Virus genome (UHGV): UHGV-0086716
Strand: one strand, 5' to 3'
From: a virus
DNA length: 13,256 bases
In this document: in pieces, positions 1,182 through 12,902 of the stretch
Layout: each line of letters opens with the position of its first letter
How positions within the stretch are numbered: position 1 is the stretch's first letter
Position numbers and translations under genes: made by a program
Notes under the pieces: generated by a model
The model's input: the letters and a program-made list of their open reading frames with translations, nothing else
Told to the model about the DNA's origin: nothing
Databases searched by the model: none

Positions 1182-1188
1182 CTGAAAC

Positions 1189-1212
1189 AAACGCCCGGAA
1201 CAGGGCGTTTTT
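1189..1212 (-). terminator. Rho-independent terminator ending the leftward early/A operon (plausibly bidirectional)
   Basis: Stem AACGCCC (1190-1196) / GGGCGTT (1203-1209), loop ggaaca, flanked by T-rich sequence on both strands; directly follows the stop of the last cassette gene (1214). Confidence 0.6.
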
Positions 1213-1213
1213 C

Positions 1214-1543
1214 TCATTTCTGCTCTCCCTTGTGTTGTGCGTTCTCCCTGATTATGTCATTGCATAAATCCACGCACTCATTGCAGATCCAAACAGATGG
1301 TCCGGCAATAATCTGTCTGACATCGTACTGGCTTTTGTTGCAGAAGCTGCAATAAAGCGTCTTCCCGACTGAAGTTGGTGTTTTGCTGGGCTCTCCACAC
1401 ACCAGTCGTTCGATGTCTCTTTCGCGCCGAAGAGCGATCTGGCTGCATACAGCTATTTTTTGCAGGTTGATGTTTTCTTTTTTCGCCAGTGCTTCAATTT
1501 GATCAATCAGTCGCTGCGCTTTTTCTCTGTCAATATATTGCAT
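1214..1543 (-). CDS. Small protein (109 aa) with C-terminal ClpX-type C4 zinc-binding domain
   Basis: ATG at 1543 preceded by GGAG with 8-nt spacer (the track's GTG at 1552 is less likely). C-terminal [38 protein letters not shown] closely matches the N-terminal zinc-binding domain of ClpX as I recall it (C-x2-C-x19-C-x2-C). N-terminal ~60 aa looks helical. Confidence 0.75.
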
Positions 1544-1557
1544 TGCGCCCACTCCGA

Positions 1558-1905
1558 TTACTGGGTTGCGATGACTGGCAGCTCTTCGCCAGCGCCGTAG
1601 ATAAACAGAATTCGCTTCATGACTTCGCTGCGCTTACAGGCTTCGATGACTGATTTTTCCTGTTGCCACTCAGCCCGTTTCGCCAGCTCCAGCCGTTCCT
1701 TTTCCGTTGGCTTCCGGTAATGCGTGATTTTGTCCGTGTACCCGTCCACAACCAGCAGCCCTTCGCGTACCATCTTTCCGGCGGCCTGATTGATTACAGT
1801 TCTTCTCACACCCAGTTTTTCGACCAGCTCCGGCGCGGAAAAACGCGGGTGTGTTTCCAGGTGGCGTAAAATGATTTCCTTTCCGGTCATTCTGGTGGGC
1901 TTCAT
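1558..1905 (-). CDS. Putative winged-helix DNA-binding protein (115 aa)
   Basis: Start re-called to ATG at 1905 (track gave 1974): AAGGAG 5 nt upstream and ATGA overlap with the upstream gene's stop. Segment [31 protein letters not shown] has an HTH/wing pattern. Confidence 0.65.
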
Positions 1906-2107: not shown

Positions 2108-2524
2108 TCATGGTCTTTGTTGCCTGCGTGATTGCCTGTTGGCGGCCGAATGCACATAGCGGGCAATTGCCGCTTTTCGGTTAACGACGGCCAGCGTTCT
2201 TGCCAGCTCTTCGTTGAGTTTTCTGGTCTGTTTTTCGTGGTATGCCTGCATGATTTTTCCTACGGGAGTCAGTGGTTCAGGCTCTGATATGGCGCGACGA
2301 GGGCGCACGGCAACGATGAATGCGCTTCTGTCGGTGTTGATTCTTGCAGCCAGGATGTCGGTCATGACGGTATCTGTGTTGCGATCGTGGTTTGCGATCG
2401 TGATCTCCAGTTCGTCGCCTGGCTGTGGTCGAACACTGACGCCGCTCAGCATCAGTGCCGGAATGCGTCCACTCATGATGGCGCTGAAATCATGGCGCTG
2501 GAGTACGCAATGGAATCGTGTCAT
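2108..2524 (-). CDS. Hypothetical protein (138 aa), first gene after A
   Basis: ATG at 2524 overlaps the A stop (ATGA) and has GGAGGTG upstream inside the A 3' end. Segment ELEITIANHD...DILAARI weakly resembles the start of DinI (unverified). Confidence 0.6.
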   Translation of the reverse strand: MTRFHCVLQRHDFSAIMSGRIPALMLSGVSVRPQPGDELEITIANHDRNTDTVMTDILAARINTDRSAFIVAVRPRRAISEPEPLTPVGKIMQAYHEKQTRKLNEELARTLAVVNRKAAIARYVHSAANRQSRRQQRP

Positions 2525-5010
2525 GGGTTCACCTCCGGTTGATCTGCTGCCACCAGGCTTCGTGATTTCTCATCCCAGTGCACAATCCGCCCGTCAGGCA
2601 GGCGAACGCGTGCACCTCTGTGTACGGAAAGTGCTGCGCCACTGTGTGGCTCCTCGCCCGTCGTGCTCAGTGCCGACTTGATCACGGTGGTGGTGACGTC
2701 AGCCAGCGGCAATGCTGCACGCACATCTATGACGTCATCGGGCGTGGTGGGGCCGCCGGTTTTCACGGTTTTTGTGTCAGATGGCGCATCTTTCAGCTGC
2801 CTGGTGAGTTGTTTTCGCTCTGTGGGGGTCAGTGACCTTAACCACTCACCCAAATCACCTCCCGGGACGACCAGTTTTTGTTCTTTCCTGGTTTCCGGTG
2901 GTGGGGTTTTACCCTCTCCGGTGTCTGTTTTTTCATCATGGGGACAGTTATTGCCACGAGTCCAAGGGGCGACAAAGTCGCCCTGAAGGTCAAAACCATT
3001 TTCGTGGGCGCTGTCTTTCACTTCTGGTTTACGCCTTACCAGCTTCCACTTGTCCAGGTGGGTGCATACCCTGGAGGATTCCCCTTTGAGCGGTGACCAG
3101 ATGCCGTAAATCTGTGCGCGCTGTTCGCCGTAATCATTAGGCTCATCTGCGATGTCATAGGCGGTACGAATCAGATAATCTTTGCGCGGAACCAGCACGC
3201 CCCCCTGCTTCTCGGTGTAGGTGGCAAAACACCCGGCGTCAGCGGCAGCCAGTACCGCATCCATGGCATCGTCTTCCAGTCGTCCGGGGCCCTGTGGATT
3301 GCGGGCCATCTGGCAGGCAAGGCGGCGCAGCTCGCGCCATACCTGTCGGGACGGAATACCAAAGAACTGAAACTGTCGGACACGGTGCAGGCGTGCCCAG
3401 CCTATGGCGTGCTCCACGCTCTCAGCCATTGGTTTTCCTGATTCGTCGTCAATGCGTGGCTTACCTGTTTTCGGGTCGATGCCATCCACGGCGCGGCTGT
3501 CCAGGTTTTTCCCGATATAGGTGGCGATGTAGCTGGTTGGCGTGCCTTTTGAGCCGTCAATGTATTCCACCTTAAAGCGTGGTGTTATGTCGTCGCCCAG
3601 TTCCTGACGGTCTTCACGGATGGCGATGTCCCGGGCTGCGTTCTCTATAGCCTTTGCGTTATCCGGATGGGTGAAGACCAGCATGTGCCAGTGCACGGTG
3701 CCGTCATGGTGTGGCTCCACCGTGCGGACGCCATACCAGCGCAGGCCGTCGCGGTTCAGCTTTTTGCGGAGGGCGGCAAAGAACTTGTTGACCAGGTAAT
3801 CACTGGAATCGCGAATGGTGCTTCCGTCCCACTTAGGGTTCAGATAACCGCGCTCCGTCGTGGCGTGAAACCTTGATGGTGCGGTGATGGTCACAAATAA
3901 CACTGTGTCGCCACGGGCTTCTGCCAGCAGTTCCATACCCTTCGTGGTCGCCATCATCTCGGCCCTGCGATTGACCGGGTTACTGATGCCTGCGTAATAG
4001 ACGGATTCAAGGTCAATAGTGAAGCCGTCCTCGTTTTCCAGTTCGAAACGTTTCAGGAAGTCGCGGGTTTTCTCGCGTTGTGCGCGGAACTCGCCCAGTG
4101 CGTCCTTACTCAGGTAGGGCGATGTTTTTCTGGAAACCAGACCGGCAGCACGCAACTGTTCTTCCCGCCATTCGCGGCGCAACCGCCAGAGTTTGTGGTA
4201 CCACCAGTCTGCGCAGTTCAGGCGAAGGATGGCGCCTGGCAGTCGTTCAACATCCGGTTCCGTTCTCCGGTTCTTGTCTGTTCTCAGCGCTTCGTAATGC
4301 GGTGGTATGGTGTGCAGGTGTAGCGCCATGCGGGCCAGTACCGGATATGCCTTCAGCATTACATCCACTGTCATCTCACCATCGCTGGCCCCGAAACCGT
4401 CGCAAAGTTTTTCGAAGGTTCTGCTGAACAGTATGGCCGTCATGGCTGCCAGCATTCGTGTCCGGCGTTCATCGAGCTGCGGCAGGTAAAGCAGGTTATC
4501 CAGATTGTCGCGCCCGGCAAGGGAACGGTAAGCCGGAGTCAGCCAGCGGCTGTTAGTGCGCTCCAGTCGTTTGAATATTTCGCGCAGTGTTTCGCTCGCG
4601 TAGCGGTCTGCCTGCCAGTTTTCCTCCCCTTTACGGCGTTCTGACTCCTGTTTTTTGCGCAGGATACTGAGTTTTTTAATAAGCGGATCCCGCAGATAAG
4701 GCGGTAACAGGCGCAGCGTGTCGTAGGCTTCGCTTACTGCATCACGTGCCCGTGGGGCAATCGCGGCGATTACCCGGTCCCGTGCTTCCTGTGCGTCCAG
4801 GTGTTTGTTAATCAGGCGCCCAAGCCTGGTCGCGGCGAAGTCTGCATCACTCAGTTCGCCGTCGGGCATCGCGCGACGGAGTGCATCCACCCGGTAGGCG
4901 TCCAGCCATGAACGAAGGGCTGAGGTGGGGGCGGGTGTTTCCCTTCTCCTCTCCTCTTGCCCTATGGCATGGCGTGGTTGTTGCCAGTCCCGGATGTACT
5001 CAGCTGCCAC
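2521..5010 (-). CDS. A: Phage replication initiation protein, gene A family (rolling-circle endonuclease), 829 aa
   Basis: Size matches P2 gpA-type proteins. HUH-type motif (GTVHWHMLVF) and tandem-tyrosine region (YIATYIGKN). GTG start at 5010 with GGAG upstream, 6 nt after the upstream gene's stop. Confidence 0.88.
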   Translation of the reverse strand: MAAEYIRDWQQPRHAIGQEERRRETPAPTSALRSWLDAYRVDALRRAMPDGELSDADFAATRLGRLINKHLDAQEARDRVIAAIAPRARDAVSEAYDTLRLLPPYLRDPLIKKLSILRKKQESERRKGEENWQADRYASETLREIFKRLERTNSRWLTPAYRSLAGRDNLDNLLYLPQLDERRTRMLAAMTAILFSRTFEKLCDGFGASDGEMTVDVMLKAYPVLARMALHLHTIPPHYEALRTDKNRRTEPDVERLPGAILRLNCADWWYHKLWRLRREWREEQLRAAGLVSRKTSPYLSKDALGEFRAQREKTRDFLKRFELENEDGFTIDLESVYYAGISNPVNRRAEMMATTKGMELLAEARGDTVLFVTITAPSRFHATTERGYLNPKWDGSTIRDSSDYLVNKFFAALRKKLNRDGLRWYGVRTVEPHHDGTVHWHMLVFTHPDNAKAIENAARDIAIREDRQELGDDITPRFKVEYIDGSKGTPTSYIATYIGKNLDSRAVDGIDPKTGKPRIDDESGKPMAESVEHAIGWARLHRVRQFQFFGIPSRQVWRELRRLACQMARNPQGPGRLEDDAMDAVLAAADAGCFATYTEKQGGVLVPRKDYLIRTAYDIADEPNDYGEQRAQIYGIWSPLKGESSRVCTHLDKWKLVRRKPEVKDSAHENGFDLQGDFVAPWTRGNNCPHDEKTDTGEGKTPPPETRKEQKLVVPGGDLGEWLRSLTPTERKQLTRQLKDAPSDTKTVKTGGPTTPDDVIDVRAALPLADVTTTVIKSALSTTGEEPHSGAALSVHRGARVRLPDGRIVHWDEKSRSLVAADQPEVNP

Positions 5011-5016
5011 AGCGAT

Positions 5017-5391
5017 TTACTCCGCGATGCTGTTCAGTGCGCCGAGGCAAACAGCGGTCAGGCGCTGGATTTCCTGCGCGGTGGCTTCAGGGCTTGCCCG
5101 GCGGTGCGTAATGCGAAGACTGTCGGAAATGACTTCAATGAGCACCGACGACGGGCACTGACAGATGCAAACAACACTTGCAATGGTGTCTTCAATGCGG
5201 GAGAGCGTGTAATTGCCCTGGTTGCAGGCAAGCAGGTAGCGGCCGTCAATGACAGTCTGACCATCGGGAAGTTGTGGTGCTGTGGGTTGCAACTTCCTGT
5301 ACATCTCGAAGCGATGGGCAACGCGATCTCGTGTACCGGCGTCGCTTTCGGTCTGAATCAGGTAAGTTACAAAATCATCGATGAGAATCAT
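5017..5391 (-). CDS. Hypothetical protein (124 aa) immediately upstream of A
   Basis: ATG at 5391 with AGGAGG 9 nt upstream; protein-like composition; same strand as operon. Confidence 0.65.
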   Translation of the reverse strand: MILIDDFVTYLIQTESDAGTRDRVAHRFEMYRKLQPTAPQLPDGQTVIDGRYLLACNQGNYTLSRIEDTIASVVCICQCPSSVLIEVISDSLRITHRRASPEATAQEIQRLTAVCLGALNSIAE

Positions 5392-5463
5392 TGTGGCAAT
5401 CCTCCTGTTGCAGATGTGCGGAAGCCTCCCGCGTACAGATACGGGATAGCTTCCGGATGTGGT

Positions 5464-5685
5464 TTATCGGTGCTGGTTGATGAGGCTTTGCAGTTCTGCC
5501 AGATCTTCGGCGAGATAGCTGAAGACAGCAGCGCAGTAACGGTTTGATAGCGCGTGCGTGCGCTCATGCAGCATGTTGATGTGCATGATTTGCGCGACGC
5601 GTGTTGCGCGGAAAAGTCTGCGGTTGATTTCGCTGCGTATGTGAATACGCTCAGCGCGGGCGCGCTGTTGCTTGCGGTTTGCCAT
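5464..5685 (-). CDS. Small basic hypothetical protein (73 aa)
   Basis: ATG at 5685 with AGAGG upstream; arginine-rich N-terminus suggests nucleic-acid binding. Confidence 0.5.
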   Translation of the reverse strand: MANRKQQRARAERIHIRSEINRRLFRATRVAQIMHINMLHERTHALSNRYCAAVFSYLAEDLAELQSLINQHR

Positions 5686-5728
5686 GGTGTGGCCTCTGCG
5701 TTAGTAAGTTCTGAAAACTCACCATCCA

Positions 5729-5917
5729 GAGTTGAGAATCTCGGGGTGGCGAGACGTACGGGGTTCTCAACACCGGCTAACACAGGACCCGGCCCGACCG
5801 AAGTCGGCCCCGTACGCCCCGCCATAATTCTGACGCGAAAAAGACGTGGCGATACAGTACGCACAAAAAAACCGCTGGCGCGGCTGTGCGCTGTGTTAGT
5901 CAGCGGGTTGAGAATCC
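5729..5917. repeat. Structured non-coding island with GTTGAGAA(T/C)C repeats and nested perfect stems
   Basis: GTTGAGAATC at 5731-5740 and 5907-5916 (direct); inverse copy GTTCTCAAC at 5763-5771. Nested TCTCG/CGAGA (5739-5743 / 5750-5754). Perfect 9-bp stem CGTACGGGG / CCCCGTACG (5755-5763 / 5808-5816) enclosing CCGAC-cgaa-GTCGG (5794-5807). No ATG-initiated ORF with an RBS in this stretch. Confidence 0.45.
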
Positions 5918-5982
5918 CGGCACCCGTTTTATGAGGTGCAGCGGAAATGTAACCTGACTCAACGAGCGCTGGCAAGCGGTTT

Positions 5983-6010
5983 TTGTGTTGCGTGCTGAAG
6001 TATGTATAAT
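5983..6010 (+). promoter_or_regulatory. Sigma70-type promoter for the plus-strand embedded gene
   Basis: -35 TTGTGT (5983-5988), 16-bp spacer, -10 TATAAT (6005-6010) preceded by TG; about 60 nt upstream of the ATG at 6072. Confidence 0.5.
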
Positions 6011-6071
6011 CGCGGCGCAAAAATGGAATGCGCCGAAGGATAGCGGCGTTTATTAACAATGGAGGTTGTTT

Positions 6072-6539
6072 ATGCCTGTTGCTATGGAGCAAGCAGACAA
6101 GAAGATTTTTTTCCATCTGTGGTACAGCTACTGGCTGGAAGAGATGGTTTTCATACTCAGCAATAAAGCCGCTGCCGTGTTGCGCGCCGGGGCACTGATT
6201 GCTGCGGTATTCTCCTTTCTTCTCGTAGGTTTTCCCGTCCTGATGAGCCTTTGCGGGCTGGCGTTTTTTGTTTTTTCCTGGTTTTGCAGCAAGTGTGAAT
6301 TCGTCGCCGAACTGGCGTGCTGGCAGAAACAGAGCTACCTTCGTCTGATTACGCAAAGGGATTCCATGAGCACTGAACGCCTCATTGAGCGCATTCTGTA
6401 TCTGGAAGAAACGAACAGCGCATTCATGAAGGCGTTTGTCAGGCCTGCAAAAAACAAAGCGAGCGCATCTGTTGGTCTGTCTGCCAGCGAGCATTTGCGT
6501 TACTCCGAAAGGTTAATCTGCTGGTTGTGCGGCTTCTGA
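6072..6539 (+). CDS. Embedded plus-strand gene: predicted membrane protein (155 aa) with cytoplasmic C-terminal domain
   Basis: ATG at 6072 with GGAGG 6 nt upstream and own promoter. Two hydrophobic helices (AAAVLRAGALIAAVFSFLLVGFPVLM, SLCGLAFFVFSWF); codon usage looks enteric. Opposite strand to the surrounding operon; 3' end overlaps the DUF4406-like gene by 27 nt. Confidence 0.6.
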   Translation: MPVAMEQADKKIFFHLWYSYWLEEMVFILSNKAAAVLRAGALIAAVFSFLLVGFPVLMSLCGLAFFVFSWFCSKCEFVAELACWQKQSYLRLITQRDSMSTERLIERILYLEETNSAFMKAFVRPAKNKASASVGLSASEHLRYSERLICWLCGF

Positions 6540-7394: not shown

Positions 7395-8321
7395 TCAGCA
7401 GTCCGGACAGTAGCCACCGCCATGGCGACCGCATGGGTCGCACTGTTTCAGGGTGGCGATAACCTCCGGTGCGGGTTCGCTGGTTCTTGCGCCAACGCTT
7501 CTCGGTACCTGGATGCAGTTCATCCGGTATCCCCGATAAATGCGCCGTGTTTCCGGTGTGTCGGAATTGGAGATGGTGATGCTGGTCATGCCGCCCGTTT
7601 CCTGTGAAAGACGGTCAAGTGCCGCTCTCAGGCGAACGTGCTCGTGTTCATCGAATGGTTTTCCGTAGGCGGTGAAATTGTTCTTGCCACTGAATCGCAG
7701 GTAAGGGGGATCGCAGTACACGCAAAGCGTGTTGCCCATGCCGAACAGGTGACTGGCAGAGTTCAGCGTATCCTTAAAATCTGCGTGGATAAGCAGCGTT
7801 CGGGTGCTGTTTGCCTTGTCTGCAAATGCGCGGATTTCCCGCTCAGGGAAGTAGGGCTTGCGGTAGCAGCCGAAAGGCACGTTAAAGTCACCTTTTCCGT
7901 TCACGCGGAACAAACCGTTAAAGCTGTGTCGGTTCAGGTACAAAAACATGGCGGCCAGTCGCAGTTCACGGCGGTCGCTTATTCCCGTTCTGCTACTCAG
8001 GAAGGCATGATTCTCTGCGTTAAAGGTTTCGCGAATGATGAGATAGTCACCCCTGTTGTTGTGGTTCAGGAACAGGGTTTTCGCCTCGTCGATCAGGCTG
8101 TCGGTGTTGTCCCTGACTTGCCGGTAGAAATTGATCAGCGCACCATTGGAATCCCCCAGGATGTAGCGCTTGTAACTGGTGTTCATGAATACCGATGCGC
8201 CGCCCGCAAACGGCTCAACCAGGCAGTCTGCTTCTGGCAGATGCGCCTTCAGTGTGTTCATGATGCGGCTTTTTCCGCCCACCCATTTCAGCGGTGTGCC
8301 GGATAACAGCTCTTTGCTCAT
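7395..8321 (-). CDS. dam: DNA adenine methyltransferase (Dam-like), 308 aa, with short Cys-rich C-terminal tail
   Basis: KWVGGK, EPFAGGASVF (SAM-binding), FNVPFG, DPPY catalytic motif, NFTAY and ISNSDT all align with E. coli Dam as I recall it. AAGAGG RBS 7 nt upstream. Extra tail CDPCGRHGGGYCPDC. Confidence 0.9.
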   Translation of the reverse strand: MSKELLSGTPLKWVGGKSRIMNTLKAHLPEADCLVEPFAGGASVFMNTSYKRYILGDSNGALINFYRQVRDNTDSLIDEAKTLFLNHNNRGDYLIIRETFNAENHAFLSSRTGISDRRELRLAAMFLYLNRHSFNGLFRVNGKGDFNVPFGCYRKPYFPEREIRAFADKANSTRTLLIHADFKDTLNSASHLFGMGNTLCVYCDPPYLRFSGKNNFTAYGKPFDEHEHVRLRAALDRLSQETGGMTSITISNSDTPETRRIYRGYRMNCIQVPRSVGARTSEPAPEVIATLKQCDPCGRHGGGYCPDC

Positions 8322-8336
8322 AACGCGGCCTCTTTG

Positions 8337-8546
8337 TTATAGGTTTCGTGCGTTAATAAATCCCATGACGCCCCGTTGTTTTTGCTCAGCAGTCGCCAGC
8401 GAAAACCGATTCTTATTACCAGGTAGTCGTGGGGTTTTATGCGTGAAAAATTCCGCACGCCGTCGCGGAATAAACGCAGCGATGCGCGGGCTTTTCTTTC
8501 CACGTTCAGGGGGGGGGCAGCAACACACATTCAGGATGGCGACCAT
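8337..8546 (-). CDS. Possible small leader ORF (69 aa) containing the C9 tract; coding status doubtful
   Basis: ATG at 8546 with GAGG upstream, but the product is proline/arginine-rich and not obviously globular. The alternate frame (8318..8530) ends in an ATGA overlap with the dam start. Confidence 0.3.
   Translation of the reverse strand: MVAILNVCCCPPPERGKKSPRIAAFIPRRRAEFFTHKTPRLPGNKNRFSLATAEQKQRGVMGFINARNL
8509..8517. repeat. G9 homopolymer (C9 on the coding strand) in the leader/small ORF upstream of dam
   Basis: Nine consecutive G at 8509-8517, inside the 234-bp interval between the exonuclease stop and the dam start, within codons 10-13 of a small ORF (8337..8546, minus). Confidence 0.9.
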
Positions 8547-11155: not shown

Positions 11156-11179
11156 AAAGATACTCATACGAGTATCTTT
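11156..11179. promoter_or_regulatory. Perfect 10-4-10 palindrome in the divergent switch region (candidate operator)
   Basis: AAAGATACTC-atac-GAGTATCTTT, perfect dyad, 21 nt upstream of the repressor ATG and within the 103-bp interval between the divergent starts. Confidence 0.55.
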
Positions 11180-11199
11180 TGCGAGAGGTTAATACTCAA

Positions 11200-11541
11200 A
11201 TGGTTATCTTGTCAATAGACTATGCAAAAAAGCTACGTCAAATACGCAAGGCTGAAGGGCTAACGCAAAAGGAATTTGCGGATATTACGGGGTTGTCTTT
11301 AGCTGCCATAAGGAACTATGAATCAGGGCAAAAAAGCGCCAGAGCCAAAATTGTTGAGGCGGTTCTCCAGGTTGATCGATTTGAAAAATACATGATGTGG
11401 CTAATAAAAGATAAGACAATGCCTGTTGCCGGTCAGATAGCTCCGGCTCTCTCTCTTGATGGCTCCATTCAGTCGGAGGACGATCAGGATTCAATCCCAG
11501 CCACCCAAAAATCATCCCGATCAGGCCGCAATGCTGGCTAA
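11200..11541 (+). CDS. Immunity repressor, P2 C-like (HTH), 113 aa
   Basis: Motifs YESG, FEKYMMW and GQIAPAL match P2 repressor C as I recall it; HTH (LTQKEFADITGLSLAAIRNYESG). ATG at 11200 with GAGAGG upstream preferred over the track's TTG at 11179. Immediately upstream of int, as in P2. Confidence 0.8.
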   Translation: MVILSIDYAKKLRQIRKAEGLTQKEFADITGLSLAAIRNYESGQKSARAKIVEAVLQVDRFEKYMMWLIKDKTMPVAGQIAPALSLDGSIQSEDDQDSIPATQKSSRSGRNAG

Positions 11542-11610: not shown

Positions 11611-12603
11611 ATGTCGATTAAGCAACTCAAAGACGGGCGTTATAAGGTTGATGTAAGGCCGCAAGGGGCGGAAGGAAAGCGGATCCGTAAGATTTTTACC
11701 CTGAAGTCAAAGGCACAGGAGTTTGAAAGGTATGTTTTGCAGAATTTCCACGATAAACCGTGGCAGGCCAAGCCAGCTGATCAGCGTCGGTTATCCGAAC
11801 TGATAGATGCCTGGTGGGTGCTTGATGGTCGGAATCAGCCTTACGGGGATACTTACAGGGTCAGGCTGGAAAAAATAAACCGTGAGATGAGGGACCCCCG
11901 CGCCAGTGAGATGACGCGAAAGTTTATGCTCGGGTATCGTTCAGATAAATTACAGGCCGGATTAATGCCCTCCAGTGTTAATCGTGATTTGTGCGCCTTG
12001 TCTGCAATGTTTACCGCGCTGATTGATGCGGAGGTTTTCCATAATGAAAACCCGGTGCGTGGAATACGTAAGCTCAAGGTCAGGAATACAGAAATGGCCT
12101 TTCTTTCAGATGATGAGATTGATCGGCTCCTTGAGCGACTCGAGGGTGATGCGCGTCGCGTTGCTGTTCTGTGTCTTTCCACTGGCGCAAGGTGGGGGGA
12201 AGCGGCTGGTTTGCGTGGTGAGCATATCGTTGGTAACCGCGTAATGTTCTTTAACACAAAGAATGGAAAATCCCGCGCAGTTCCTGTTTCTGATACGGTG
12301 CTTTCGTTGATAAAAACCCGAAAAACTGGGCTATTGTACCAGGCTGATTACATCCGTTTTCGGGAGATCCTTCAGGAGGTGAAGCCGGACTTGCCGAAAG
12401 GGCAGGCCACCCATGTCATGCGTCATACATTCGCTACACATTTCATGATGAATGGCGGAAATATCGTTACGCTACAACGAATCCTGGGCCATGCCACGAT
12501 TCAACAAACGATGACGTATGCGCATTTTTCGCCGGACTTTTTACAGGATGCAATCAGCTTTAATCCGCTGGCTGAAAGTGTCCATAAACTGTCCATCGAT
12601 TAG
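11611..12603 (+). CDS. int: Tyrosine integrase, P2 Int-like (330 aa)
   Basis: GGAGGGG RBS 6 nt upstream. Catalytic-region pattern LCLSTGARWGEAA, HVMRHTFATHFMMNGGNIVTLQRILGH, TMTYAHF (R...HxxR...Y). Last phage gene before host DNA. Confidence 0.92.
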   Translation: MSIKQLKDGRYKVDVRPQGAEGKRIRKIFTLKSKAQEFERYVLQNFHDKPWQAKPADQRRLSELIDAWWVLDGRNQPYGDTYRVRLEKINREMRDPRASEMTRKFMLGYRSDKLQAGLMPSSVNRDLCALSAMFTALIDAEVFHNENPVRGIRKLKVRNTEMAFLSDDEIDRLLERLEGDARRVAVLCLSTGARWGEAAGLRGEHIVGNRVMFFNTKNGKSRAVPVSDTVLSLIKTRKTGLLYQADYIRFREILQEVKPDLPKGQATHVMRHTFATHFMMNGGNIVTLQRILGHATIQQTMTYAHFSPDFLQDAISFNPLAESVHKLSID

Positions 12604-12718
12604 TTGTAACTTGTGCTTATTTGCTCCCCTTGTTTTGATTTACTCATTGAAAAATAAGCAAATCATCAAGGGGAGTAAGTAGCGTTAAACCTCCTGCGGG
12701 CGCTTTTTTTGTCTCCCT
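12604..12718. other. Prophage/host junction containing an att-like core
   Basis: GAAAAATAAGCaaatcatcAAGGGGAG (12649-12675) resembles the P2 att core as I recall it. An upstream segment (12612-12630) carries reverse-complement copies of the same sub-motifs. T7 run at 12704-12710. Confidence 0.4.
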
Positions 12719-12732
12719 TTGATACCGAACAA
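12719..12732 (+). promoter_or_regulatory. FNR-type binding site upstream of dmsA
   Basis: TTGAT-accg-AACAA matches FNR consensus TTGAT-N4-ATCAA at 9 of 10 positions, 171 bp upstream of the dmsA ATG; dmsA is a known FNR-activated anaerobic gene. Confidence 0.5.
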
Positions 12733-12902
12733 TAATTACTCCTCACTTACACGTAATACTACTTTCGAGTGAAAATCTACCTATCTCTTTGATTTTCAAA
12801 TTATTCGATGTATACAAGCCTATATAGCGATCTGCTATAGAAATAATTACACAATACGGTTTGTTACTGGAATCAATCGTGAGCAAGCTTGAGTGAGCCA
12901 TT

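Follow-up and report, generated by a model that had tools for sequence, protein, structure and literature searches.

What does a copy of the N-terminal docking domain of host ClpX do in a small phage protein that lacks the AAA+ ring? This question is raised by a 109-residue protein encoded in UHGV virus genome UHGV-0086716, of which a stretch of 13,256 nucleotides was analysed as a whole (hereafter, the window). [quoted passage not shown]

Location of the ZBD gene in the early operon of a P2-like prophage

The window represents the left arm of a P2-like prophage. The plus strand carries an integrase gene (11611-12603), a cI-like repressor gene (11179-11541) and the 3' end of the portal gene (148-708), the last of which converges on an early operon of the minus strand. 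The early operon includes replication gene A (2521-5010, minus strand; PF05840), a Cox-like gene, a 3'-5' exonuclease gene and a Dam methylase gene. The P2 cos 19-mer gave no match at up to 3 mismatches. Overlapping start and stop codons (ATGA) chain gene A to a 138-aa gene, the 138-aa gene to a 69-aa gene and the 69-aa gene to a winged-helix gene (1561-1905, minus strand). The ZBD gene follows 15 nt past the winged-helix gene, and is the last gene of the early operon.

The coding sequence, taken from the list of open reading frames and the sequence itself, extends over 1214-1543 on the minus strand, with the ATG at 1543 and the stop codon at 1214-1216, and specifies a two-domain protein of 109 aa composed of a helical hairpin, a linker and a ClpX-type ZBD. 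A ribosome-binding site, GGAG (1552-1555, minus strand), was read from the sequence at 7 nt 5' of the ATG and 2 nt past the TAA (1558-1560) of the preceding winged-helix gene. Since all homologues begin with MQ(Y/H)IDREKA, the ATG was taken as the start; the GTG at 1552, which would make a protein of 112 aa, overlaps the ribosome-binding site and was rejected. The GC content of the gene is 45% versus 52% for the window. Records of the exact 109-aa protein come from 55 blocks of the assembly collection; every locus returned has the same P2-like context.

A stem-loop (1183-1216, core 1189-1210, minus strand), detected by pattern scan, inverted repeat and RNA fold, is located directly 3' of the stop codon of the ZBD gene and is followed by UUUGUUU on the minus-strand RNA. 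Its folding energy is -26.5 kcal/mol (z=-6.1 against shuffled sequences), and it probably serves the early operon as an intrinsic terminator. A search for sigma-70-like sites detected none within 600-2700 of the window, nor 5' of the homologues in two other loci. Given the ATGA chain, the closely placed ribosome-binding site and the absence of a promoter-like site, expression together with the early lytic operon would be the simplest reading.

When the window was aligned with L001, the complete E. coli prophage closest to it (about 91% identical over the aligned parts), the terminator, the ZBD gene and its ribosome-binding site were seen to form together an exchangeable cassette of 380 bp (1183-1562). 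The flanks (709-1182 and from about 1563) are conserved in L001 and the breakpoints are sharp, so the ZBD gene is a swappable cassette within the gpA-gpQ interval. The corresponding site of L001 is taken by an unrelated cassette about 1 kb long, which includes an ORF of 235 aa and a truncated SSB of 86 aa. The gpA-gpQ interval of P2-like phages is a cos-proximal hotspot of variable cargo, rich in defence systems (Rousset et al. 2022, PMC9122126). Genes unrelated to defence, for example those of partition systems and toxins, are also carried there.

The C-terminal domain is a genuine ClpX-type ZBD

The C-terminal part of the protein, residues 60-103 (1235-1366, minus strand), was assigned to the ClpX-type ZBD by Pfam, BLASTP and Foldseek. 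The match to Pfam zf-C4_ClpX (PF06689) has an E-value of 1.2e-17 and a score of 64 bits against the gathering score of 27, and the same profile is matched by all 27 aligned members of the family to which the protein belongs. By BLASTP, residues 60-100 align with residues 10-50 of E. coli K-12 ClpX, 33 of the 41 positions being identical and 39 positive (80% identity, 95% similarity; E=8e-24). The best sequence matches in the PDB are ZBD structures (1OVX and 2DS5-2DS8; E about 1e-20).

The predicted fold is in agreement with this assignment. In an AlphaFold2 monomer model built on 27 family sequences (mean pLDDT 79), the domain is predicted to consist of beta-hairpins and a helix at residues 88-107 (pLDDT 83-87), which is a treble-clef fold, and Foldseek superimposed it on 2DS5, 2DS6 and 2DS8 with 0.6-0.8 Å rmsd and target TM-scores of 0.89-0.93. 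All significant fold matches in the PDB (E<=0.001) were ClpX or its human homologue CLPX. The zinc ligands, as identified by alignment to ClpX, are C65 (1349-1351), C68 (1340-1342), C87 (1283-1285) and C90 (1274-1276), all on the minus strand; they correspond to C14, C17, C36 and C39 of ClpX, form the pattern CxxC-x18-CxxC and are invariant across the family. As to the residues of the docking pocket, F67 (F16 of ClpX) is invariant in the family and I97 (I46 of ClpX) is hydrophobic in most members. In the member encoded in the window, K26 of ClpX is replaced by Q and L27 by I.

The ClpX equivalog models TIGR00382 and NF003745 gave only 47.6 and 46.9 bits, respectively, far under the cut-offs of 370.75 and 359, and the matches are confined to profile positions 4-50, that is, to the ZBD alone. 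The protein ends 6-9 residues past the ZBD helix, and the AAA+ module is absent from the 109-aa protein. By sequence and predicted structure, residues 60-103 are thus confirmed as a true ZBD of the ClpX type, which sets them apart from generic zinc ribbons. These results bear out most of the preliminary description of this locus, which had given the same coordinates and protein length but no strand, had quoted a 36-residue peptide that is present exactly, had recognised the C-terminal 40 or so residues as the ClpX domain too similar to be a generic zinc ribbon, had noted an unrelated helical N-terminus and the absence of any AAA+ module, and had placed the gene last before the early-operon terminator.

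An orphan hairpin precedes the ZBD

Residues 1-48 (1400-1543, minus strand) form a predicted helical hairpin with helices at 6-22 and 27-48 (AlphaFold2, pLDDT 82-94). The hairpin is connected to the ZBD by residues 49-59 (1367-1399, minus strand), a flexible linker according to both the model and the family alignment. The pLDDT of linker residues 54-59 is below 50 and the pTM of the whole model is only 0.38, indicating that the hairpin and the ZBD have no fixed relative orientation. Both length and sequence of the linker vary across the family, and the hybrid member P0100 has a recombination junction there.

A profile of the N-terminal domain, when compared with 1.84 billion representative proteins, matched 16 proteins, comprising family members, truncated forms of them and a few repetitive coiled-coil proteins. 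The same profile detected no relative in the GTDB species-representative genomes, no relative outside the family was found in Pfam (nothing credible at E<=10), and all Foldseek matches in the PDB and among viral structures were to the ZBD part, none to the N-terminal domain. As far as these searches can tell, the N-terminal hairpin is an orphan unrelated to ClpX and restricted to this family, and because its profile returns only its own family apart from the repetitive coiled-coil proteins, the two-domain architecture is both fixed and narrow. The conserved residues of the hairpin are E22, E23, L38, R39, R40 and D43, of which E22 and E23 are nearly invariant and located at the turn. An XB-like ClpX-binding motif was considered in this domain and rejected; the published ZBD-binding consensus is LKxh (h, small hydrophobic residue), to which the invariant LRR(E/K) does not fit, and this segment is inside a predicted helix.

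An old derivative of clpX under purifying selection

From its sequence, the ZBD is clearly derived from a clpX gene. Family members carry the E. coli-type residues Y13, N44 and R48, where R, L and A, respectively, are commoner in the other ClpX fragments compared; these three residues fit a gammaproteobacterial donor. The identity with E. coli clpX at the DNA level is, however, 70% over 123 aligned bases, only 17 of 41 third codon positions match (41%), and the codon is shared at no more than 14 of the 33 identical residues. Recent capture was ruled out by these values, and the capture of clpX is judged to be old. The earlier proposal of capture from a host clpX holds as a statement of homology, and Y13, N44 and R48 are consistent with it, but the event was not recent.

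The ratio dN/dS in distant comparisons within the family was 0.1-0.4 for both domains (0.10-0.44 for the N-terminal domain). Synonymous sites compared with clpX are near saturation while the protein identity is still 80%. Near-saturated synonymous sites and low dN/dS mean that this identity reflects purifying selection and not recency, which indicates that selection acts to keep the domain ClpX-like. Since dN/dS is below 1 and many copies are intact, the gene is not a decaying remnant.

The degree of conservation differs among clades. Closest to ClpX is the copy in the window, which is identical to it at 33 of 42 positions, followed by the clade of phage P88 with 29-32 and the D6-like clade with 19-30. 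The D6-like clade is relaxed at K26, P31 and I46, all of which are invariant in the 14 ClpX fragments compared, and members of this clade may bind something else.

Distribution of the family

By DNA search, at least 229 of 5,426 complete E. coli genomes (at least 4%) carry a member of the family, 136 of the places found being chromosomal and 105 on plasmids; the carriers include UTI89 and O55:H7 CB9615. Named sources of the family are Escherichia and Salmonella only. The members reside in four contexts, two P2-like lineages, a lambdoid prophage array and phage-plasmids. In the P88 type of P2-like phages (P88 gp19, UTI89), the gene is preceded by ParM/ParR and followed by a hypothetical gene of 104-112 aa. 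In another P2-like lineage (L015), a 143-aa gene is located upstream and Ogr faces it on the other strand. One member is included in the Ea22-type early accessory array of a chromosomal lambdoid prophage, and others are carried by the phage-plasmids D6 and PhiR41_1. No neighbour or partner gene is common to the P88 type, the window type, L015, the Ea22 arrays and the phage-plasmids; P88 gp20 is unrelated to the winged-helix protein of the window.

The existence of the gene is already on record, the domain assignment being routine annotation and the family being catalogued. The protein matches PHROG 6797 (function unknown) with E=1.2e-47, residues 3-108 aligning with positions 4-106 of the 107 in the profile, and D6 orf93 matches it with E=2.6e-57. 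Listed family members are labelled 'ClpX C4-type zinc finger protein' by PGAP (NCBI), and older records contain the misnomer 'carboxylate--amine ligase'. A supplementary table of Rousset et al. 2022 lists the arrangement 'StbA + Plasmid_stab_B + zf-C4_ClpX + hypothetical', while ClpX is not mentioned in the main text and we found no sign of this gene among the systems tested there (PMC9122126). The novelty implied in the preliminary description was thus overstated with respect to the gene. As to function, we found no study of this family in the literature, including interaction, expression and phenotype.

Outside the family, stand-alone ZBD proteins of other architecture are encoded by unrelated phages. 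The protein of Pseudomonas phage phi1 is 65 aa long (PHROG 12435) and is encoded after replication gene P, and an ORF of Caulobacter phage Cr30 is likewise a stand-alone ZBD of different architecture.

Possible role as a decoy of the ClpX docking domain

With 80% identity and 95% similarity to residues 10-50 of ClpX, the surfaces of the phage domain are almost unchanged. The occurrence in four contexts without a common neighbour speaks for a partner in the host and not in the phage. The lack of any conserved phage partner, together with the ClpX-like selection, points to the ClpX network of the host as the target. By analogy with the isolated ClpX domain, the most likely and most economical explanation is that the protein acts as a decoy, a dimer of free ZBDs that would compete with ClpX for its adaptors and its ZBD-dependent substrates; we give this reading an even chance of being right.

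We infer that this small early protein would offer a free copy of the N-terminal docking domain of ClpX, that it would dimerise via the ZBD in the manner of the ClpX domain, perhaps aided by the N-terminal hairpin, and that the dimer would expose a hydrophobic docking surface of the ClpX type and compete for the proteins that dock on the ZBD. Those titrated would be the adaptors SspB and RssB and the ZBD-dependent substrates, for instance lambda-O-type or MuA-type proteins. Adaptor-dependent or ZBD-dependent degradation by ClpXP would then be blocked selectively while ZBD-independent degradation goes on. The linkage of the gene to the early lytic operon would place the benefit in lytic growth, in which either a labile phage protein would be stabilised or host antitoxins or sigma-S would be spared from ClpXP. 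We know of no ClpXP-sensitive protein of P2-like phages.

Biochemical precedent for such a decoy is found in E. coli. [quoted passage not shown] Of the two modes of action suggested in the preliminary description, heterodimerisation with ClpX and titration of adaptors, titration thus has a direct precedent in vitro. The inhibition took micromolar excess, 5-20 uM of free ZBD against 0.6 uM of ClpXP (PMC7226468), so a phage decoy would have to be abundant or bind its ligands more tightly than ClpX does. In ClpX, the docking pocket overlaps the binding site of lambda-O, and trigger factor, SspB and RssB bind there as well (PMC7804408). The occurrence of stand-alone ZBD proteins of other architecture in unrelated phages (phi1 and Cr30) also counts for the decoy model, while the drift of the D6-like clade away from ClpX counts against it. 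A pure decoy model leaves the N-terminal hairpin without a role, and the conservation of this hairpin suggests a second interaction.

A wider proposal, which we put forward tentatively and with some doubt, is that phages repeatedly captured the ClpX docking domain as a trans-acting anti-adaptor, by which adaptor-dependent and ZBD-dependent ClpXP proteolysis is shut off during infection. Such an anti-adaptor would stabilise labile phage proteins or sigma-S, or would block the activation of abortive infection by protease-dependent toxin-antitoxin systems, and the orphan hairpin of the enterobacterial family would add a second specificity.

Alternative explanations

The close similarity to ClpX would also suit a protein that acts on ClpX itself. 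The phage ZBD might pair with a ZBD of ClpX, and the hairpin, then located atop the ring, would disturb the trimer of dimers and block or re-tune ClpX directly. This poisoning of a subunit would give the conserved N-terminal domain a role. Furthermore, the region of 80% identity and 95% similarity covers the C-terminal helix and the beta-hairpins of the ClpX dimer interface (PMC5890618), and the rates of ClpXP vary with the number of ZBD dimers on the ring (PMC7804408). Members of the D6 clade, however, diverge at many positions. The ZBD of ClpX is described as forming a very stable dimer, so exchange would demand co-assembly of the phage protein with newly made ClpX. Direct poisoning is judged to be quite unlikely. 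A partner other than the ClpX ligands would fit both the conservation of the N-terminal domain and the drift of the D6 clade away from ClpX, as expected if the ZBD were reused as a dimeric treble-clef module, binding through the hairpin and a diverged ZBD surface to a target outside the ClpXP network, such as a sigma factor or a phage regulator. The sole literature match for the domain name, a paper on the architecture of cyanobacterial sigma factors, would favour such a scaffold. CsfB of B. subtilis, a stand-alone dimeric treble-clef protein resembling the ClpX ZBD, is an anti-sigma factor (PMC5890618). The window's member and the P88 clade nevertheless remain 69-79% identical to ClpX, surface included, with synonymous sites saturated; a pure scaffold needs no such identity, as CsfB with only about 20% indicates, and F16 is invariant. 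On this evidence, repurposing of the ZBD as a scaffold is unlikely.

A decoy expressed from the prophage might alternatively serve to exclude competing phages, as cargo of the gpA-gpQ hotspot that blocks ClpX functions needed by the competitors; replication of Mu, for example, has a ClpX-dependent step. The presence of the gene within this interval, an anti-phage hotspot next to cos (PMC9122126), and its nature as a swappable cassette would suit exclusion. In contrast, the gene is read in the direction of the early lytic operon and linked to it with no promoter-like site of its own found, the 109-aa protein matches no anti-phage defence family in PADLOC-DB 2.0 at E<=0.01, the hotspot also carries partition systems and toxins, and the relatives outside P2-like phages are located in early accessory arrays and not in defence islands. 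Exclusion of other phages is therefore held to be very unlikely. The suggestion of the preliminary description that the protein is a decoy or sensor in a defence context found no support, given the lack of a PADLOC match, of a conserved partner gene and of a promoter-like site of its own, and the chaining to the lytic operon. Finally, a hairpin with an acidic tip (E22, E23) followed by a C4 zinc finger recalls DksA and TraR, which raises the idea of a factor that enters the secondary channel of RNA polymerase. The layout is superficially alike, with a helical hairpin, CxxC...CxxC and near-invariant glutamates at the turn. However, none of the 27 members matches the DksA/TraR zinc-finger family at E<=10, although every one matches PF06689, and no DksA, TraR or Gre structure was included among the PDB matches listed by Foldseek. 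The helices of the hairpin are 17 and 22 residues long, and the coiled coils of DksA or Gre are much longer. A DksA/TraR-like factor is hardly credible, and this reading was rejected on the Pfam and Foldseek evidence.

Comparison with known modulators of proteolysis

The host ClpX ZBD and the phage domain are homologous and share 33 of 41 residues, the four cysteines, the predicted fold and the pocket residues F16 and I46. They differ in that the phage ZBD is separated from the AAA+ ring and occupies the C-terminal part of a 109-aa protein behind an unrelated hairpin, and in the replacements K26Q and L27I in the window's member, with greater drift in other clades. A close functional parallel to the proposed decoy is the recombinant ClpX ZBD (Micevski et al. 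2020, PMC7226468), also a free ZBD without AAA+, whose inhibition of the RssB pathway is the mechanism proposed here. That protein is a laboratory construct of ClpX, whereas the phage gene is natural and includes an additional conserved domain, its activity being proposed by analogy.

The RssB anti-adaptors IraD, IraM, IraP and IraL are also small proteins, some on mobile elements (iraM on prophage e14, while iraL is horizontally acquired), and they halt delivery to ClpXP leaving its catalytic activity untouched (PMC4045071). They are related to the phage protein neither in sequence nor in fold; they attach to the adaptor by means of other folds, and the phage protein would instead mimic the docking site of the adaptor on ClpX. 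Among phage proteins, PinA of T4 and gp4.5 of T7 inhibit Lon, and RexB of lambda blocks ClpP (PMC10286901). These likewise interfere with host proteolysis and are proposed to protect phage proteins or antitoxins (PMC10286901), but they are unrelated to the ZBD protein and none is a captured piece of a protease. We found no description in the literature of a phage inhibitor acting through the ClpX ZBD, and a natural trans-acting ClpX docking domain would be a new variation among phage modulators of host proteolysis.

If the decoy model is correct, phages would have in this protein a natural inhibitor able to separate ZBD-dependent degradation by ClpXP from the ZBD-independent kind, acting by domain mimicry, unlike PinA, gp4.5 and RexB. 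The adaptor traffic of ClpXP would then be a target of temperate E. coli phages, the model could also explain why at least 4% of complete E. coli genomes carry the gene, in prophages and phage-plasmids, and the gene would be a ready-made genetic tool to switch off adaptor-mediated proteolysis. If the model is false, the family is still an unambiguous homologue of the ClpX ZBD that has been reused outside ClpX. In this respect the phage protein differs from CsfB (Gin), which is also a small stand-alone protein with a dimeric treble-clef zinc domain resembling the ClpX ZBD, but shows about 20% identity and 4.4 Å rmsd to ClpX, its authors doubting common ancestry (PMC5890618).

The proteins of phi1 and Cr30 agree with the present family in having no AAA+ module and in being encoded by early or replication-proximal genes. 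In contrast to the family, their ZBD is N-terminal, followed by a short tail and with no hairpin, and they have diverged further from ClpX, 22-24 of 42 residues being identical to E. coli ClpX. Whole ClpX is encoded by some jumbo phages.

Exchange of gene cassettes in the slot of the ZBD gene

The slot that carries the ZBD cassette in the window (1183-1562) is occupied by an alternative cassette (L001 3092-4166) in L001, the closest complete E. coli prophage used for alignment (SW070917). One ORF of the L001 cassette codes for a truncated single-stranded DNA-binding protein of 86 aa that retains only the OB-fold (PF00436, E=1.6e-12). A second ORF, of 235 aa, gave no Pfam match. The truncated protein is a second case of a host-protein fragment in the slot of the ZBD gene. 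Within the ZBD family, the hybrid member P0100 (115 aa) carries a zinc-binding domain of the D6-type clade behind a different N-terminal helical region. Since the join falls exactly at the linker SGAPSVSASP, the sequence of P0100 indicates recombination at the domain boundary, and its N-terminus is suspected to be derived from the upstream Ea22-like gene.

The immediate upstream neighbour of the ZBD gene (1561-1905, minus strand) encodes a 115-aa winged-helix protein, with matches to MarR_2 (E=3.8e-6) and to PHROG 142, 'Ren-like exclusion protein' (E=5.6e-28). The two genes are mutually independent, because L001 has the winged-helix gene without the ZBD gene.

On the portal side of the cassette, the spacer of about 470 bp between the portal gene and the cassette (709-1182) is highly conserved in L001 and contains no credible gene. 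Behind the stop codon of the portal gene it contains a perfect hairpin of 11 bp (735-759), and the repeat TTT(C/T)GTGCAC occurs in it three times, at 1081, 1163 and 1173. This spacer probably represents the cos region. A 19-mer taken as the P2 cos sequence gave no match at up to 3 mismatches. A 232-aa ORF on the minus strand (277-975), which overlaps the portal 3' end on the opposite strand and spans the portal terminator hairpin, showed no match in Pfam, PHROG or PADLOC, and is most likely spurious.

Many public records of the ZBD family, including P88 gp19, D6 orf93 and many E. coli proteins, carry the name 'carboxylate--amine ligase'; in more recent records from PGAP the name is 'ClpX C4-type zinc finger protein'. 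No sequence feature supports the identity as a ligase, and the former name is a propagated misannotation.

Other elements of the early operon and the integrase side

Within the P2-like early operon, gathering-level Rfam matches to the C4 antisense RNA (5742-5829, 77.8 bits) and the Hfq-binding sRNA isrK (5865-5939, 62.3 bits) are located directly upstream of a gene (5464-5685) whose 73-aa product belongs to the 'Derepression' family, PF25738, all on the minus strand. The whole segment (5464-5939) looks like a P1/P4-type antirepressor module under antisense-RNA control, and the overlapping 368-aa 'ORF' (5388-6494) is therefore probably non-coding. In the same operon, an ORF of 70 aa (8318-8530, minus strand) carries a ParE-like toxin domain (PF24732, E=8.5e-18). 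It is flanked by the Dam methylase and 3'-5' exonuclease genes, with no antitoxin partner evident in its vicinity.

Just past the integrase gene, the sequence matches STnc130, an sRNA of enterobacteria, over its full length (12678-12812, minus strand, 122 bits). This match presumably lies beyond the attachment site, in host DNA. In the related locus of E. coli, dmsA comes next.
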